A stretch of 57,019 nt of DNA from Thermoplasmatota archaeon (GCA_965234725.1 CBDDUX010000047.1:1-57019), one strand, 5' to 3'. Positions 4,921 to 11,994 are shown, counted from the first letter of the stretch. The notes: generated by a model not told the origin, from the sequence alone. Numbers and translations: made by a program.

Positions 4921-6000
4921 CTATATCTCTACTATATCGCTCATATCGTAGAATTCGCCAGTTAATACATTGAAGAACGAATCCTCATCAGTATCCCATA
5001 ACAACGGAGAGGTATTGAATCGATATTCCTCCAGGTTAGATAGGCCGTCAGGTCTGTAGATCAGAACATATCTACTTCCGTTTTCGAAATGGATCACACT
5101 CTGGACATCGATATCCATCGAAGCATCAGACGGATCCAAAGGATCAAGGAATGCGATCCTGGAGAGGTGATAGTAGTTCAAAACGTAGGAACTATCGGGA
5201 ATGAAGTAACCGTTCACCACCCTCTCCTCTTCTGAAAGGACCTCTACATCTTCCACTTGGAGATCACCTGACTCATCAAAGAACATTTCAACTAACTCTC
5301 GGCCGAAATGAAACTCCCATCCATCATCCATTCCGTCGTTGTCAGTATCCGATAAGGACGGATCGGTTGTTACTCTTTCCATAATCCTTTGATTATAAAT
5401 TCGAAAGTCCACATGGAAATGAAAACCACCTTTCATTGCTATCTCAGTAGCGTTGAGTTCTGGGCTCAGTCCCCCGAATACGGGGTCGCTCTCGTTGAAA
5501 CATCATCTCTCAAAATCATATTCCGCACCCCCGCAGTATTCCCTGAGGTTGAAAAGGGATTCTTCATCTGATATTTCCCCATCATGGTCTGCATCGAATC
5601 CATCTCCATCCGGATTCTCGAATGCATCCTTTACCAATGGATCAAGGGTCCATTTCATCAATTGAGGATCCCATTTCCTGTTGAGGATCTCCCAACCGTC
5701 TTCCATTCCGTCTCCGTCCGTATCCGGATCATAGGGGTCGGTTCCGTATTCATTGATCTCTTCCACATCCGACAATCTATCCGGCCAGATCACAACCGTC
5801 TCATCGATCATCAACCTGTCGGAATCCGCTTTTTTTATAGCACGGTCAAAATGCGAATCCTCCCATCTCATATTATCATCGAGGTATTTTGTTCCATTTG
5901 AAGGTGGAAAGAAATGGAAGTAGAGGGGCCCGGATGCAATAATGATGAACAAGATGAGGATCGAAATTTTAATTCTCCCTCTGTTCTTCTCATACATCAT
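4921..6000 (-). pseudogene. membrane-anchored DxDGDG (TSP3/binary-toxin-like Ca-binding) repeat protein interrupted by one in-frame TGA
   Basis: ORFs 5503-6000 and 4921-5436 share a frame and are separated only by TGA at 5503-5505; both halves carry DTDxDGMxDGWE, DGLSNLEEY-type motifs. Confidence 0.7.
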
Positions 6001-6397: not shown

Positions 6398-6470
6398 ATT
6401 TTTTAAACATCTCTCACAAAGCTTACTTAGCTTGTTGTCTCATTTACCTCCTCTAAAATGGGTGACAGAA

Positions 6471-7577
6471 ATGACAAGCGAGGTTTTCATGGCTGACCTT
6501 CGATCCAAAGGAAATGAGTCCAATACCGTCACGAAGGTCAAGAGATTATTTGATGAAGCTGGTCTGGCCAGTATAATAAGTAAAAAGGACCTAACTGCGA
6601 TCAAGCTCCATTTCGGCGAGAGAGGTTCCGATGCTTTCATCAATCCTATTTTCGTGAGACAGGTCGTGGAGAAGATCAAGGAAGGGGGTGCCAACCCGTT
6701 CCTGACTGATTCCAACACCCTTTATCGGGGTGACAGGCACAACGCAGTGGACCACCTGATAAATGCCATAGAGAACGGTTTCGATTTCTCGGTAGTAAAA
6801 GCTCCACTGATAATCGCTGACGGTCTGAAATCCAAGGATGTCAGTTGGATAGACATCAATGGAAAGCATTTCCAGAAGGTCAGGATCGCTGCAAATATCG
6901 CGCAGGCCGATTCCATGATCACCATGTCACACTTCAAAGGACACATCATGGCTGGTTTCGGAGGGGCGATAAAGAACCTGGCCATGGGGGGAGCCTCTGC
7001 TTACGGAAAGATGGACCAGCATTCAGTGAGGCCGGAAGTGATAGAAAAGAAGTGCATCGGCTGCAGGATGTGTATGAAGATCTGTCCCGTAAATGCCCAT
7101 ATCTACGAGAATGGCAAGGTCCATATTGACAAAGAGATCTGCATCGGATGTGGTGAGTGTATCATTGTCTGCCCCCAGGAAGCGATAGGTCTTGACTGGT
7201 CTTCGGAGATAGTACCTTTCCAGGAAAGAATGGCAGAGTACGCTCATGGGACCACTGTGGGAAAGGAGGGGAGGATCGGTTATTTCAATTTCCTCACCAG
7301 AATATCTCCTCAGTGCGATTGTTTCTCATGGTCCGATTACCCGATAGTTCCAGATATTGGAATACTTGCATCGAAAGACCCAGTTGCTATAGATAAGGCG
7401 TCCTTCGACCTGGTAAATCAACAGAGGGGATTCAAACAATCATCACTTAAAAGCGGTTGGGAACCCGGTGAGAACAAGTTCAAAGGCCTGAAACCGGAGA
7501 TAGATGCGGAGTATACTCTGAGATATGCAGAAGAATTGGGTATGGGTTCAACAGAATATGAGCTGATAAAAATATAA
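6471..7577 (+). CDS. DUF362 domain protein with 2x[4Fe-4S] ferredoxin insert
   Basis: AIKLHFGE, SHFKGH..AGFGGAIKNLAMG, two CxxCxxCxxxCP motifs, CDC, DPVAIDKA. Confidence 0.92.
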   Translation: MTSEVFMADLRSKGNESNTVTKVKRLFDEAGLASIISKKDLTAIKLHFGERGSDAFINPIFVRQVVEKIKEGGANPFLTDSNTLYRGDRHNAVDHLINAIENGFDFSVVKAPLIIADGLKSKDVSWIDINGKHFQKVRIAANIAQADSMITMSHFKGHIMAGFGGAIKNLAMGGASAYGKMDQHSVRPEVIEKKCIGCRMCMKICPVNAHIYENGKVHIDKEICIGCGECIIVCPQEAIGLDWSSEIVPFQERMAEYAHGTTVGKEGRIGYFNFLTRISPQCDCFSWSDYPIVPDIGILASKDPVAIDKASFDLVNQQRGFKQSSLKSGWEPGENKFKGLKPEIDAEYTLRYAEELGMGSTEYELIKI

Positions 7578-7583
7578 AAAAAA

Positions 7584-7604
7584 GGGGCCAGATAATTAGG
7601 CCCC
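7584..7604. terminator. hairpin terminator between convergent genes
   Basis: GGGGCC/GGCCCC stem preceded by an A-run, which reads as a U-run on the - strand transcript. Confidence 0.65.
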
Positions 7605-7632
7605 CTTCCCTGAATTAAGGTTCAGGATCCTA

Positions 7633-8121
7633 TCACTCTGTTTCCTGATAGCTTTCAAGGGTTTTCACGAGATGGATCTCTTCCATGACCTTTCCGATCT
7701 CGGTGGGGGCCAGTCTTAGCCTCCTGTCCTTGAAACCAGTCTTTATAAGGATCTTCCATACCTTGAACTTCTTCAGTTTATCATATGGTATCTCCAGTGA
7801 TGTGATCTTTCCAACCTTCTCACCTTCCGAATCTACCACATGTACCTTTTGAAGATCATCATATGGGTAGAGGTTCTTGGTCGGGATCTCGGGGACCTCT
7901 ACCTCAGTTATCTCGTCCTTAGCTATCAATTTCATATCGGTGGTATCGACCTTCATGATGTCGGAGATGTTAACCAAAAAGCTCTTTTTAAGAGCTCCAG
8001 GGGATGCTTTGAATGCTACGATCTCCCATTTGTCCAGGTCCAGGTATATCTCTTTGATCTTACCGATATGTTCTCCAACGGAGTTCGTGATCTCATATTT
8101 CTCAATAAGTTCTTCCATCAT
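7633..8121 (-). CDS. tandem PRC-barrel domain protein
   Basis: Two PRC-like repeats: YEITNSVGEHIGKIKEIYLD and VHVVDSEGEKVGKITSLEI; GAGGTG upstream of ATG at 8121. Confidence 0.85.
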   Translation of the reverse strand: MMEELIEKYEITNSVGEHIGKIKEIYLDLDKWEIVAFKASPGALKKSFLVNISDIMKVDTTDMKLIAKDEITEVEVPEIPTKNLYPYDDLQKVHVVDSEGEKVGKITSLEIPYDKLKKFKVWKILIKTGFKDRRLRLAPTEIGKVMEEIHLVKTLESYQETE

Positions 8122-8131
8122 GTAATTCACC

Positions 8132-8479
8132 TCACTTCTTGGCAACCTTAGGTGCCTTATCGATGGCGGCCAGTTCCCTCTCCATCTGAGATGTGGATGC
8201 CTCGGCGTCCATCATGTAGTCTGTCATTGCCTTGACCCTTCCGGTAAGGTTCGTGTATCGATCCTCATAGACCACAAGGTCCAGGCCGGTAACTATTCCG
8301 TATTCGGAGATATATGAATCGAGGTTCTGATCAAGGTATTTCTCTATCCTTCCGTCGAAGAGCCTTCTCTTGTACTCTGGTGCCTCTTCCTCTACCTCTT
8401 CTTCTTCCTTCTTTGCGAAAAGGGACCTGAACCAGGATCCGAAACCTCTTCTTTCTTCTTCTTCAATTATTTCTTCCAT
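8132..8479 (-). CDS. short coiled-coil protein, paralogue 3 of operon
   Basis: GGAGGTG SD; amphipathic GFGSWFRSLF segment; shared motif IEKYLDQNL...EYGIVT..D followed by heptads. Confidence 0.8.
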   Translation of the reverse strand: MEEIIEEEERRGFGSWFRSLFAKKEEEEVEEEAPEYKRRLFDGRIEKYLDQNLDSYISEYGIVTGLDLVVYEDRYTNLTGRVKAMTDYMMDAEASTSQMERELAAIDKAPKVAKK

Positions 8480-8491
8480 TCATAACACCTC

Positions 8492-8821
8492 CTAAAAACC
8501 CTCCAGTTTCCCAATATGGGTTTCTATTCTTTTCATCCTCTGGTCCAGACTCTGCCTCTTCTTTTCAAGTACAACTATATCGGTGTCGACCTTGGATAAC
8601 CTGGTTCCGATATCCTTCTTGAAGGTCTTTACCCGGTCCCGTGTGATGAAATCCCATTCCGTCATTATCTTCCTGAAATTCTCATCGAAGTAGAGCTGCA
8701 GATGTGAAGGCATTGCCTTCTTCTTGATGCTTCTGAGCCTGAAGAACCAGATAAGGGACAGGACAAAAAGCAGGAAAAGGCCCGCGATCAAAACTATGTA
8801 CCAAATGTCGGTATTGTTCAT
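8492..8821 (-). CDS. membrane-anchored short coiled-coil protein, paralogue 2
   Basis: GAGGTG SD before ATG 8821; N-terminal TM, basic stretch, LQLYFDENF...EWDFITRD, then heptads. Confidence 0.8.
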   Translation of the reverse strand: MNNTDIWYIVLIAGLFLLFVLSLIWFFRLRSIKKKAMPSHLQLYFDENFRKIMTEWDFITRDRVKTFKKDIGTRLSKVDTDIVVLEKKRQSLDQRMKRIETHIGKLEGF

Positions 8822-8831
8822 TTTTAACACC

Positions 8832-9104
8832 TCACTCCGTGCCATACTTAATCTTGAAGCGATCCAGCCTCACGCGGTTTTCATTGATCCTTCCTGTAAA
8901 GATCTTCTTCCAGCCCTCAAGTTCGGTCATCCTCTTCTCCAGACCTTCGAAATCGCCCTCCAGGCTTGAGATATCCGACCTGTCTGCTACCTTGAATTCA
9001 TCCATGAGGTCAGGTAAATGCTCTGATAGATACTGGTCGAGCTTCTTGTTCATGGAGAAAGCATGGGTGGCCGAGAATGCCTGCATTCTTTGACCTACTT
9101 TCAT
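8832..9104 (-). CDS. short coiled-coil protein, paralogue 1
   Basis: ATGA overlap with upstream gene; LDQYLSEHL...EFKVADRSD, then LEKRMTELE heptads. Confidence 0.8.
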   Translation of the reverse strand: MKVGQRMQAFSATHAFSMNKKLDQYLSEHLPDLMDEFKVADRSDISSLEGDFEGLEKRMTELEGWKKIFTGRINENRVRLDRFKIKYGTE

Positions 9105-9478
9105 TTTTCATCCTCCTCTTCATCCTCTTCCTTGTGCTTTTTCAACTTATCCTTAAATTTATTCCATGAGACCTTCATATCCTCTGAAAGGGTAGTATAT
9201 GGTGAGATCGTGATCTCATCCCCTTCATTGACCTTGAGGTCTTTCATGTCTTGTTCCCTAAGGATCACTCTTCCCTTCTTTGCCAGGTTGTCGGAAACCA
9301 GGTTCACGACATTCTTCTTCTTGCCGCTTGAGATGGTCACCATCTTTGGGACCTCCTCACCGAAGCAGGAAAGATGAGAGGAATTGATCCTTGCAACTCC
9401 CGAATCAACGGAGTCTATCGAGCTGCTAATCACCTTCAAGGTGACCTGATGCTCTTCGCTATCACATTCATTTTCCAT
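9101..9478 (-). CDS. stand-alone CDC48/VAT/NSF N-terminal double-psi beta-barrel domain protein
   Basis: LKV....DSVDSGVARIN...VTISSGKK...GRVILREQDMKDLKVNEGDEITI follows the CDC48_N pattern; no AAA domain follows. Confidence 0.72.
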   Translation of the reverse strand: MENECDSEEHQVTLKVISSSIDSVDSGVARINSSHLSCFGEEVPKMVTISSGKKKNVVNLVSDNLAKKGRVILREQDMKDLKVNEGDEITISPYTTLSEDMKVSWNKFKDKLKKHKEEDEEEDEK

Positions 9479-9748
9479 TGATAATCACATCCTGTGAAGT
9501 ACTCATTTACTCCAACGTCTCGATATCTTAATTGGTGTAGATAAACTTTTACACAGATTATTTAACAATTAAAGCTTTAATTTCGATATATGAATTTTTA
9601 TTCAAAAATTTTATTATAAAACTAATTATAATTTCTCACCTTTTTTTGATGATTTTTTGTTCATCAATGCCGTGATATGATAACGATCGTAAGAGAAAGG
9701 ACATCTTTGTTCAATAAAGGGGTTATAAGTTCCTGACAATGGACCCGT

Positions 9749-10669
9749 ATGGAGAAGGATAGGGCCATTTCAGCAAGTGCCTTCCTATTGCTTCTATTAC
9801 TGATGTCGATCTTCTCTTCCATTCCTATTGCAGATACCGTGAATTCTATCTCACCTTGGCCTATCATTATCCGACTTGAAGAATCCAAGATCAATGTGTC
9901 ATTGGACGGGACAAACGACTCTATAGCGTCAGTAATAGGGAGTGTGAACTGCCATTTCCCTTCAAATTATGAGCAGTTAAATGTTACACTTTCCGTTAAT
10001 CCAAGCGGATTCGATTGGAGTCCATTTCCATCATTTATGATATTCACTGATAAGGTCTCAAATCACTATTTCACCATTTTAATAACCGTTCCTCACAACA
10101 CTTCATCCGGGATCCCATTACCTGTAAGCATCACTGGAAAATGGGAAGCAAAATCGAATAACATGTCAGGAGGTATGGAGGTGGCCTCCTGCATTCTTGT
10201 TCCCAGGCAGTATTACAAGCTGTCGGTGATTCAGTGTGAAAATACTACTGTCAGAGCAGGAAATGATGCTAAAATTCCGATCAGATTATTGAATGAGGGC
10301 AATGGTGCGGACAGGCCAAGGATCCAGATAGATAATCTGGATCACCTTATTAGCAGAGGTTGGGAGGTTCAGCTTTCCCAGGATAAATGCTCACTTCCAG
10401 CCAATAGAATGAAGGTTCTTTCCATTTTTTTCCACGTCCCCTCCAACGAGGTTCCGGGAACCTATGAGATCAAATTGATAATAATCTCTGCCATTGCGGA
10501 ATCGCTTGGCGAGATATCATGCATTGGACAGAGGACCATTGAGGTCAAGGTCCTGAACAATTATAAGGATGAACTTATAACAGCTGCTTGGATCTCGGCT
10601 CCTCTCCTCATTCTGGTGGCGGTCACGATCCTTGTAATATCATTATATGCAAAGAGAAATAGGAGTTGA
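9749..10669 (+). CDS. secreted Ig-like surface protein with C-terminal anchor (choice-of-anchor T-like)
   Basis: Signal peptide, ITVPHNT, ITGKW, NEGNGAD, C-terminal TM with KRNR; similar to 3789-4853. Confidence 0.75.
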   Translation: MEKDRAISASAFLLLLLLMSIFSSIPIADTVNSISPWPIIIRLEESKINVSLDGTNDSIASVIGSVNCHFPSNYEQLNVTLSVNPSGFDWSPFPSFMIFTDKVSNHYFTILITVPHNTSSGIPLPVSITGKWEAKSNNMSGGMEVASCILVPRQYYKLSVIQCENTTVRAGNDAKIPIRLLNEGNGADRPRIQIDNLDHLISRGWEVQLSQDKCSLPANRMKVLSIFFHVPSNEVPGTYEIKLIIISAIAESLGEISCIGQRTIEVKVLNNYKDELITAAWISAPLLILVAVTILVISLYAKRNRS

Positions 10670-10721
10670 TCTCAGTTATTCTGGGAAAACCTTTTCTCCT
10701 TATCGTCCAATATATTCCATC

Positions 10722-10991
10722 ATGGAGCTCCGTAAAGGGATCGCGGGAAAGGACCTCCTGTGGAAGGTCAAAGGCAGTCTTGATGACGAATCCTTCCTGG
10801 AATTCGAGACAATGGTCCTCAACTCCGGTTATTCGGGGGAGGACCTGACCCTGGACCTCTCCGATGTCCAGCTGATCTCGGATAGTGGAAGACGGTCCCT
10901 TGACAGGGTTGTCAGGACTGCAAAGGAGAGGGGGGCTCAAGTAAGGGTTCTGATCCCCGAGAAGACCTCATCGGGAAAGCTGTTCCATTGA
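10722..10991 (+). CDS. STAS domain protein
   Basis: VKGSLD...LTLDLSDVQLISDSG...L...AKERGAQV matches the STAS pattern. Confidence 0.75.
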   Translation: MELRKGIAGKDLLWKVKGSLDDESFLEFETMVLNSGYSGEDLTLDLSDVQLISDSGRRSLDRVVRTAKERGAQVRVLIPEKTSSGKLFH

Positions 10992-11004: not shown

Positions 11005-11994
11005 TCAGGACCTTTCCTCGCTCTTCATCAACGTCTCCACAAGGAGGTTCAGGTCATCCGAATGTTTCTTGAGCATCTCTTTAGCTTCCAGTTTTAGCCC
11101 CCTCATATTTGATACCCTAACATCATCCAGATCATCGTTCCCTGAATCAAGCCTGCTCTGGAACCTGAAATACCTCTTGGTCCTTCCCGGGGGCTTGAGG
11201 AGTTCATTCAGCTGATAATCAATCGTATCGCTAACTCCATCGAAGATGACATTAAGTATGGGTTGGGCCCACTGTGCAAGACCCCAGTCCTTTGCATCGT
11301 TGTGCTGTATCCTTCTTGTAAGTTCTCCGGTTCCCAGGGAGACCATCAGAATATCCTCGGATTCCGGGAACATGGTCCTTGCTTCCACATAAGCGCACAT
11401 TCCCGGATTGTTCGCATATACTCCACCGTCAATAAGTGAGTAATAATCCGAGGAATCCATGGCTGTCAACTTCTTTGGTGAGAAATACGTGGGAGCGGCA
11501 GAAGCGGCCCTGGCCACGTCCTTCATGGCGAAGTCGTAACTTTCGGATACCCTTGCTCTATCGCTTCTGAAGAACCAGGGAGTTCTACCCTCGATCTCAT
11601 AAGCGGGGATCATTACAGGAGTTATTGCATCCTTCAATCTGGTCTCTCCGAAGAACTCGTCCAGGACCTGTTCCACTCCTTTGTCCGGATATTTCTCATC
11701 CAGAAGGTTCCAACCTGATTCCACCCTCTTCCATAGGGGAATGTGGAATATCCTTTTCCCCTGGGTCTCATAGAAACCAATGAGGGATTTGGCATCATGG
11801 GCAGGACCACCGCTTTTCCCGGGAACTGTCAATGCCATTGCTATCAAACCTCCGGTGGAAGTGCCCACGATGAGATCGAAGAGATGGGAGATAGGCCTCT
11901 GGGCCTTTCCCTCTATCTCTTTGAGCACAAGTGATGGTATGATCCCTCTAATTCCCCCTCCATCGATGGATAGTACTCTGATCGGTTCTTTCAT
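11005..11994 (-). CDS. patatin-like phospholipase
   Basis: DGGGIRG, GTSTG nucleophile, SAAPTYF, DGGVYANNP, SLGTG. Confidence 0.95.
   Translation of the reverse strand: MKEPIRVLSIDGGGIRGIIPSLVLKEIEGKAQRPISHLFDLIVGTSTGGLIAMALTVPGKSGGPAHDAKSLIGFYETQGKRIFHIPLWKRVESGWNLLDEKYPDKGVEQVLDEFFGETRLKDAITPVMIPAYEIEGRTPWFFRSDRARVSESYDFAMKDVARAASAAPTYFSPKKLTAMDSSDYYSLIDGGVYANNPGMCAYVEARTMFPESEDILMVSLGTGELTRRIQHNDAKDWGLAQWAQPILNVIFDGVSDTIDYQLNELLKPPGRTKRYFRFQSRLDSGNDDLDDVRVSNMRGLKLEAKEMLKKHSDDLNLLVETLMKSEERS

Follow-up and report, generated by a model that had tools for sequence, protein, structure and literature searches.

What could a gene cluster do that encodes, head to tail, a free Cdc48-type N-domain, three small helical proteins and a tandem PRC barrel? 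This question is raised by a 57,019-nt stretch of DNA from a Thermoplasmatota archaeon (GCA_965234725.1, CBDDUX010000047.1:1-57019), which is called the window here. Five co-directional open reading frames (ORFs), genes 1 to 5, lie on its minus strand between positions 7633 and 9478. A preliminary description, made from the sequence, had presented them as a candidate membrane-remodelling or division module. The five genes form an operon-like unit that is real and conserved. Together with three further protein families, they may serve as a platform at the membrane that recognises and scaffolds other proteins.

A conserved five-gene unit

The start positions of genes 1 to 5 were assigned at 9478, 9104, 8821, 8479 and 8121, respectively. 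For genes 3 and 5 the longest ORFs begin further upstream, at 8845 and at a TTG codon at 8145. These starts were set aside because Shine-Dalgarno sequences stand before internal ATG codons, GGAGTGAGGTG upstream of the ATG at 8821 and TGAGGTGA upstream of the ATG at 8121. The start of gene 2 overlaps the stop of gene 1 in an ATGA at 9104-9101, and the remaining intergenic gaps from gene 2 to gene 5 measure 10, 12 and 10 nt. Upstream of gene 1 the GC content is 0.30-0.34 across positions 9350-9800. The hairpins downstream of the last stop (Table 1) have a folding energy of -24.4 kcal/mol (z -2.2), and 4 of 200 shuffled sequences folded equally well. A generic scan for sigma-70 promoters and terminators gave counts at the level of shuffled sequence, and the site with the hairpins and U8 was not listed by it. 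The layout that had been read from the window at the outset, with five same-strand genes overlapping or about 10-12 nt apart, strong Shine-Dalgarno sequences, an AT-rich upstream region and a closing terminator hairpin, is thus borne out.

When 41 related Thermoplasmatota genomes were searched, the double-psi beta-barrel (DPBB) protein of gene 1, the gene 4 protein and the PRC protein of gene 5 each matched in the same 31 genomes, where they are always clustered, and the same 10 genomes were negative for all three. BLASTP placed the five genes together in 23 distinct loci of related genomes. This set overlaps with a set of 32 loci from the genome collection, drawn from the same genomes, of which 26 contain all five genes by BLASTP, two have a diverged ORF at the DPBB position and four are cut by contig ends. 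The co-occurrence in other genomes, which had been named beforehand as a check on the proposal, is therefore found. In one family (L025-L028) the order is permuted to PRC-DPBB-2-3-4, which speaks for selection acting on the set of genes. The flanking genes vary between copies and look unrelated; they encode, for instance, a class I LysRS with a PRTase, Na/H exchangers or a DUF362 Fe-S protein. In addition, the window's genome carries a second complete five-gene copy on contig C77 (locus L035, 1799-3650, plus strand; 43-63% protein identity), and many relatives have two or three operon copies in differing neighbourhoods.

We also searched for the gene 4 family on a wider scale. Its profile matches 37 of 401 Thermoplasmatota genomes, 31 of them in the class of the window's genome and six scattered elsewhere. 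A search of 1.84 billion representative proteins gave 57 matches at E <= 0.001, and 186 proteins of a larger collection match at E <= 0.01. Among the matches listed (120 of the 186), none has a precomputed Pfam domain, all names given read 'hypothetical protein' and almost all of the organisms are labelled as Thermoplasmatota or Thermoplasmata.

Contigs from four sediment metatranscriptome libraries of one study, 95-99% alike, cover the operon. One contig of 2137 nt spans 7337-9470 and with it all five genes. In the other three runs the contigs end at 9498-9506 and at 7625-7635, which gives a weak hint of transcript ends. Positions 9562-9900 had no cover in any of the four runs, and no conclusion was drawn from this.

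Two kinds of barrel and a modelled coiled-coil trimer

The product of gene 1 falls below the cut-offs of the sequence families to which it is closest. Pfam CDC48_N matched with E 1.6e-5 and 25.5 bits, under the cut-off of 35.1, over profile positions 2-84 of 85; the NCBIfam CDC48 model gave 14.6 bits, against a cut-off of 802.65, and Pfam UFD1_N1 matched weakly (E 0.055). An AF2 model based on an alignment of 25 sequences (pLDDT 76.4) had 231 Foldseek matches to the PDB at E <= 0.001. The top matches were the p97/VCP N-domain and the DPBB of archaeal VCP-like ATPases, with E values of about 1e-6 and TM-scores to the target of 0.73-0.80. The model thus indicates a double-psi beta-barrel for gene 1, in agreement with the free CDC48/NSF-type N-domain proposed earlier. 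The likeness to the N-domains of Cdc48, p97, VAT and Ufd1 lies in the DPBB fold over about 85 residues. Gene 1 differs from these proteins in that it encodes a free protein of 125 residues without the second (beta-clam) subdomain and without AAA domains. In place of these parts, the family alignment has a C-terminal helix at residues 99-124 with a conserved W-x-K-F, followed by an acidic tail. A third DPBB gene of the same genome, with 39% identity to gene 1, stands alone on contig C7 (locus L036, 2039-2398, plus strand), outside any such cluster. An overlapping ORF of 159 aa comes after it, and similar lone copies occur in many relatives.

The second barrel protein, encoded by gene 5, matches Pfam PRC (PF05239) in two stretches with 34.7 bits, above the cut-off of 21.2. 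Its AF2 model (pLDDT 92.0) has two barrels and PRC structures are the top Foldseek matches, so that the tandem PRC barrel named in the preliminary description stands. The best match is 8qzo, the CdpB1/CdpB2 complex of A. fulgidus (E 1.6e-8, TM-score 0.66-0.73). The family profile also found chain 8qzo_A among PDB sequences (E 7.5e-5); a single-sequence search of gene 5 against the 8qzo chain gave no match. Three other tandem PRC proteins are encoded in the window's genome. One of them, L089 on contig C35, matched 8qzo_A over nearly its full length in the single-sequence search (E 0.0021), and a second paralogue, L090, did not match. Near the tandem PRC gene of L089, a run of masked bases at 2088-2360, which has no biological meaning, reads as X in the translation.

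For the proteins of genes 2, 3 and 4 no Pfam or NCBIfam family was found above threshold, and the sub-threshold matches were coiled-coil noise (DUF16, XhlA, DUF7310). Likewise, the gene 4 profile matched generic coiled coils among PDB sequences (best E 0.012), and in the ESM Atlas gene 4 matched unnamed archaeal clusters at 0.95, 0.92 and 0.91, with a weak lead to PHA_synth_III_E at 0.78. Pairwise BLASTP among the three proteins was marginal (E about 0.01). We therefore compared them as profiles, each built from 23-28 orthologues. By hhalign, gene 2 matched the gene 4 family with 96.8% (E 2.4e-10), gene 3 matched the gene 4 family with 92.6% and gene 3 matched the gene 2 family with 89.6%. Moreover, the hidden Markov model of each helical family matches the other two families in distant loci, with E values down to 3.7e-10. 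The three families have a core in common, [LI]-x-x-Y-[LF]-[DS]-x-N ... E-[WY]-[GD]-[LI]-x-T-x-x-D, which is followed by a heptad-rich helix. These comparisons support that genes 2, 3 and 4 are paralogues, as had been suspected.

Two of the paralogues have features that may bring them to the membrane. In gene 3 a transmembrane (TM) helix at residues 9-27, with a mean Eisenberg hydrophobicity of 1.01, is followed by a basic stretch, and by the positive-inside rule the C-terminal domain is therefore predicted to be cytoplasmic. Gene 4 has a conserved aromatic and basic motif, GF-x-x-W-x-[RK]-S-x-F, a candidate amphipathic membrane-binding helix. Its mean hydrophobic moment is 0.40; when all 14-mers from the five proteins are taken together, the median is 0.26 and the 95th percentile 0.49.

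We modelled the three paralogues as a complex, using gene 2, residues 36-109 of gene 3 and residues 30-115 of gene 4 with our own alignments. The heterotrimer reached an ipSAE of 0.84, 0.84 and 0.83 in three runs, whereas the best of three controls reached 0.26. In the calibration of the ipSAE mark, 58 of 80 solved complexes and two of 110 mismatched pairs attained it, counts that are only rough for this model because own alignments and three chains were used. The contacts of the runs agreed to at least 93% and the partner pLDDT was at least 85. The closest contacts join homologous positions; residue 85 of gene 4, for instance, meets residue 62 of gene 2 and residue 85 of gene 3. The model thereby supports a parallel, in-register three-helix bundle, in which genes 2 to 4 would form a heterotrimeric coiled coil. 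The heteromeric bundle with one TM subunit that had been postulated from the window has thereby gained a controlled complex model.

Further members of the module and a second lineage

In some loci two extra genes stand within the cluster. The gene that we call X (about 133-152 aa, with a TM helix and a coiled coil) lies between genes 3 and 4, and the gene that we call Z (about 106-123 aa, with a C-terminal C-P-x-C...C-P-x-C zinc ribbon) lies between gene 4 and PRC. Both are inside the cluster in five of the six loci from outside the window's class (L069 and L071-L074), in which all five families are present, and also in one locus from within the class (L031). In the sixth out-of-class locus (L070) the same two extra ORFs were recognised by eye. 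The DPBB was not found in the stretch examined of L070 and of L031. X was considered as a fourth paralogue of the helical proteins and rejected (hhalign 21.6%). In the ESM Atlas nothing matched X at 0.9 or above, a low recognition.

On contig C48 of the window's genome, an X-paralogue is followed by Z, X, a Cys-rich protein of 109 aa and a membrane protein of 267 aa. The Cys-rich protein is a member of Prok-RING_2 (PF14445), with 51.9 bits against a cut-off of 22.4. This family was reportedly defined by Burroughs, Iyer and Aravind in 2011. The RING genes of the module are clear members of it as a whole (51.9 to 115 bits), and their proteins have eight invariant Cys. No E1, E2 or ubiquitin-like (Ubl) partner was found in the loci examined, and the RING gene of this genome is encoded outside the window's operon, on another contig. 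Directly after the RING gene follows the gene of the 267-aa protein (locus L076, 3244-4047, minus strand), which has TM segments and two winged-helix domains (HTH_24 and HVO_0163-type HTH) and is conserved in eight of the loci compared; it could be a membrane-bound regulator of the module.

The distribution of the additional families follows that of the operon. Z was found in 29 of the 41 relatives, all within the 31 operon-positive genomes. Prok-RING_2 was found in 28 of the 41, namely in 27 of the 31 operon-positive and in one of the 10 operon-negative genomes, and in none of 14 control genomes. X, Z and RING are mostly single-copy, and Z matched twice in two genomes (G029 and G033). In three loci (L029, L033 and L034) the genes are contiguous as DPBB-2-3-4-PRC-X-Z. 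In L033 and L034 the RING gene stands directly after Z; L029 has it on the opposite strand, about 1.2 kb upstream. These gene contexts support that X, Z and Prok-RING_2 belong to the same system as the five-gene operon. Of the five-gene unit in the preliminary description, the operon itself holds; its completeness does not, since the three further families co-occur with it and are contiguous with it in some genomes. In another genome (G016, contig C464, 2429-8489) two cluster copies with identical scores stand in tandem with a Z gene between them (5542-5877), which is either a real duplication or an assembly repeat.

A second lineage was reached through weak matches of the gene 4 profile, proteins of about 100 aa and about 73 aa that profile comparison rates as homologous to the gene 4 family with 98.3%. 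Close relatives of these proteins are named as coming from Methanoculleus, Methanolinea, Methanoregula and Methanospirillum, and by one source from Methanolinea mesophila. In a metagenome scan 80 loci were fetched, and the 45 of at least 5 kb were examined. Their common operon consists, in this order, of DPBB, X, two paralogues (the first of about 104 aa, the second of about 73 aa), a TM paralogue and a protein of about 107 aa. The ORFs counted in the 45 loci were 41 for DPBB, 44 for X, 45 for the TM paralogue and 90 for the other paralogue profiles, and the last gene was found in 36 of the loci. This last gene is again Prok-RING_2 (E 7.7e-28 and 1.8e-33), and eight Cys and the motif Q-C-x-x-C-G-R-W-x-C are invariant across the RING proteins of Thermoplasmatota and of these loci. 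Judged by the names of the relatives, the contigs probably belong to Methanomicrobiales.

PRC and Z were found in none of the 45 Methanomicrobiales-type loci. The conserved core therefore consists of DPBB, X, the coiled-coil paralogues and RING, and PRC and Z appear to be additions that, among the loci searched, occur in Thermoplasmatota only. The DPBB proteins of this second lineage can be extended. In L166 (3767-4579) the DPBB is followed by a stretch with an Apolipoprotein match (E 2.1e-6) and a C-terminal TrkA_C-like match, both below cut-off. This protein and the DPBB of L102 (4103-4561) have long Lys/Gly/Ala-rich repeats of roughly 11 residues, which in L102 were recognised by eye.

The features of the operon in the window are collected in Table 1. 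Its upstream neighbours are the genes of a patatin-like phospholipase (11005-11994, minus strand) and of a small STAS-domain protein (10647-10991, plus strand), and a 306-aa ORF (9749-10669, plus strand) that has a hydrophobic stretch at the N-terminus and a TM helix at the C-terminus and matches no family. None of the three is conserved beside the operon in the other genomes compared. Convergent to the operon lies the gene of a DUF362 protein with two 4Fe-4S motifs (6432-7577, plus strand), which adjoins this operon copy in four loci only.

Table 1. Operon genes and presumed flanking signals, with positions counted from the first letter of the window
Feature	Position	Strand	Basis
AT-rich upstream region, presumed promoter, with SD-like AGGATGTGAT before gene 1	9479..9660	-	GC 0.30-0.34, sequence
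Gene 1 (P0001, 125 aa), stand-alone DPBB of Cdc48/VAT N-domain type	9101..9478	-	Pfam, AF2, Foldseek
Gene 2 (P0002, 90 aa), soluble helical paralogue	8832..9104	-	Alignment, hhalign, trimer chain 1
Gene 3 (P0003, 109 aa from ATG 8821), TM helix, basic stretch and helical domain	8492..8821	-	Trimer chain 2
Gene 4 (P0004, 115 aa), helical paralogue with acidic N-terminus	8132..8479	-	Alignment, trimer partner chain
Gene 5 (P0005, 162 aa from ATG 8121), tandem PRC barrel	7633..8121	-	Pfam, AF2, Foldseek
Two hairpins, then U8, likely transcription end	7576..7626	-	Sequence and fold energy

What the module may do

The eight families comprise TM-anchored coiled coils (gene 3 and X) and small protein-binding folds (DPBB, tandem PRC, zinc ribbon and RING), and no enzyme or motor domain was found in them. 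Because the module contains no ATPase or enzyme domain, a recognition and scaffolding platform anchored in the membrane seems to us the most likely function, a proposal that we make tentatively and at somewhat short of an even chance. On this proposal genes 2 to 4 would assemble as the parallel, in-register heterotrimer. Its membrane anchor would be the N-terminal TM helix of gene 3, probably joined in this role by the aromatic and basic N-terminal helix of gene 4. The free DPBB and the tandem PRC protein would dock as binding heads on this coiled-coil stalk. The five operon proteins would then be the subunits on the cytoplasmic face and one half of a larger archaeal module, which X, Z and Prok-RING_2 would complete, with the RING protein presumably docking as well. 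Such a platform could bind specific clients and either retain them at the membrane or pass them on.

Several points weigh against this proposal. A 'platform' is a broad function, and its clients are unnamed. The heterotrimer is a matter of model confidence, coiled coils can pair promiscuously, and the modelled stoichiometry was one chain each of genes 2, 3 and 4 only. At the N-terminus of gene 4 the amphipathic character is only moderate, its moment lying below the 95th percentile (0.40 < 0.49). The RNA-library contigs are consistent with a unit from about 9500 to about 7625, a weak hint that proves neither transcription nor a single transcript. Further points concern the link between the operon and the additional families. 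RING was not found in four operon-positive genomes (G011, G020, G026 and G028, which are 62-85% complete) and is present in one operon-negative genome (G031, 83% complete, in 800 contigs). In most genomes RING and X/Z stand at separate loci, and the link to the operon therefore rests on co-occurrence and on contiguity in a minority of genomes. Finally, the co-occurrence counts overstate the support, as related genomes are not independent samples.

The closest structural neighbour of gene 5 raises the alternative that the module is a divisome accessory, in which PRC would act like CdpB1/CdpB2 on SepF at the FtsZ ring and the trimer and DPBB would tether or regulate it. CdpB1 and CdpB2 (PDB 8qzo, 8onw; Nussbaum et al., Zhao et al.) have the PRC-barrel fold in common with gene 5, and, as in gene 5, two PRC-like stretches seem to be present in the 8qzo chain of 182 residues. 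According to the accessible text of bioRxiv 10.1101/2023.03.28.534543, CdpB proteins serve as small adaptors at the SepF/FtsZ ring near the membrane, and H. volcanii needs CdpB1/2, which bind SepF, for normal division. The window's genome has SepF and two FtsZ genes (FtsZ1/2) over the family cut-offs, and the part of Zhao et al. (bioRxiv 10.1101/2023.03.28.534520) available to us describes duplicated PRC domains as widespread and many PRC genes as adjoining Cdc48 ATPase genes. However, the same text states that a division role is not common to all stand-alone PRC proteins, and it reports no operon of CdpB genes with DPBB, coiled-coil paralogues or RING. The sequence similarity of gene 5 to CdpB is marginal, and by single-sequence search it is the paralogue L089, and not the operon PRC or L090, that matches 8qzo_A. 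Neither ftsZ nor sepF was found in any locus examined. Moreover, just 37 of the 401 Thermoplasmatota genomes searched carry the operon, which is therefore not a general division component, and PRC was not found in any of the 45 Methanomicrobiales-type loci, which keep every other core part. The emphasis that the preliminary description placed on division through PRC and CdpB therefore rests on a lineage-specific part, and a divisome role appears unlikely.

The RING and DPBB proteins, the two globular parts conserved in both lineages, suggest instead a membrane quality control similar to endoplasmic-reticulum-associated degradation (ERAD), in which RING would mark or select clients, DPBB, like the N-domain of Ufd1 or Cdc48, would bind the mark or the client, and Cdc48 and the proteasome would see to its extraction and degradation. 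The other parts of the module are all membrane-anchored or membrane-proximal, p97 N-domains, which bind adaptors and ubiquitin-like folds, are among the matches of the DPBB model, and the weak UFD1_N1 match points the same way. In addition, the window's genome has one full Cdc48 gene (1007 bits, contig C21) and one ThiF/E1-like gene. The parallel is nevertheless an analogy between folds and not a pathway homology, and no AAA ATPase, E1, E2, Ubl or JAB gene was found in any locus examined. A UQ_con E2 was not found in the genome either, which is uninformative as none of the 14 control genomes matched. Prokaryotic RING fingers are said, by Burroughs and colleagues in 2011, not all to be ubiquitin-related, which also counts against it, and we consider this pathway quite unlikely. 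A more specific form, in which RING and the free Cdc48/Ufd1-type DPBB on a TM-anchored trimer would select membrane-proximal proteins for extraction or turnover in Thermoplasmatota and Methanomicrobiales, is very doubtful. That such selection would be a prokaryotic forerunner, or an independent invention, of the logic of RING E3 and Cdc48-Ufd1 in ERAD, without a canonical E2, seems improbable to the same degree.

The helical proteins could also belong to a phasin-like coat or stress module, in which paralogues or amphipathic tails would cover a granule, a lipid body or a damaged or curved membrane, comparable to phasins or PspA/B/C. A short motif at the start of the coiled coil is common with the end of the Phasin profile (phasins and PhaE-type proteins, PF05597 and PF09712), as seen in weak matches: two of 27 gene 4 family members match the C-terminal part of PF05597 below threshold (best E 0.0059), and distant relatives match Phasin at 4e-4, 5e-4, 0.0086 and 0.012, with a best score of 20.8 bits. 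One source labels a relative 'polyhydroxyalkanoate synthesis regulator phasin', and the PHA_synth_III_E lead for gene 4 and the apolipoprotein-like amphipathic repeats of the L166 DPBB, with similar ones seen by eye in L102, fit the same picture. Yet every Phasin match lies below the family cut-off of 28.8 bits, and the window's own three helical proteins have no Phasin match at E <= 1. Neither a PHA synthase nor a gas-vesicle gene was found in the loci examined, the genome not having been searched for PhaC or PhaE. In contrast to phasins, the helical proteins here are three paralogues with a TM anchor and a modelled heterotrimer, and a TM-anchored in-register trimer with RING, zinc ribbon and barrels is unlike the known make-up of phasin or Psp systems. 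A match to PHA-granule or gas-vesicle proteins, which had been named in advance as a finding against the proposal, was thus looked for, and only the sub-threshold Phasin matches came up; a phasin-like role is, in our view, highly unlikely.

A likeness to SNARE/NSF had also been drawn from the window. By analogy, a membrane-anchored parallel bundle of small paralogues would be combined with a protein of the NSF/Cdc48 N-domain fold. However, the model is three-stranded and not four-stranded, the module has no ATPase and there is no second membrane to fuse. Searches found no SNARE family match at E <= 1 and no AAA gene in the loci, so that the likeness stays an analogy. A known anti-phage defence system was considered and rejected, as no PADLOC family fits: the PADLOC models gave no family for the five operon proteins, X, Z or RING. 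The second X paralogue had one weak and probably spurious Cas3 match (E 0.0014, 15 bits), and the winged-helix protein matched generic Csa3/CasR HTH models only.

None of the known systems that we compared fits the module, and all of its domain families are themselves known. We found no description of the gene set in the searchable literature, in keeping with the earlier statement that no described system of this composition is known; Burroughs et al. 2011 or Supplementary Table 2 of Zhao et al. may list parts of it. The available portions of an ESCRT survey and of a 'dark matter' review (PMC11188069, PMC6393860) contain no mention of it.

If the module is as it appears, abundant sediment archaea and methanogens have a conserved machine that comprises at least six to eight small proteins. 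A membrane-anchored recognition platform of this kind would, if true, join RING and the Cdc48/Ufd1 N-domain barrel, folds of eukaryotic quality control, with a division-linked PRC barrel on a coiled coil. Relatives in cultured Methanomicrobiales, among which one source names Methanolinea mesophila, offer an experimental entry point. The identity of the clients would bear on a membrane-associated, ubiquitin-independent role of archaeal RING fingers, and on whether PRC barrels are general membrane-proximal adaptors or division-specific parts.

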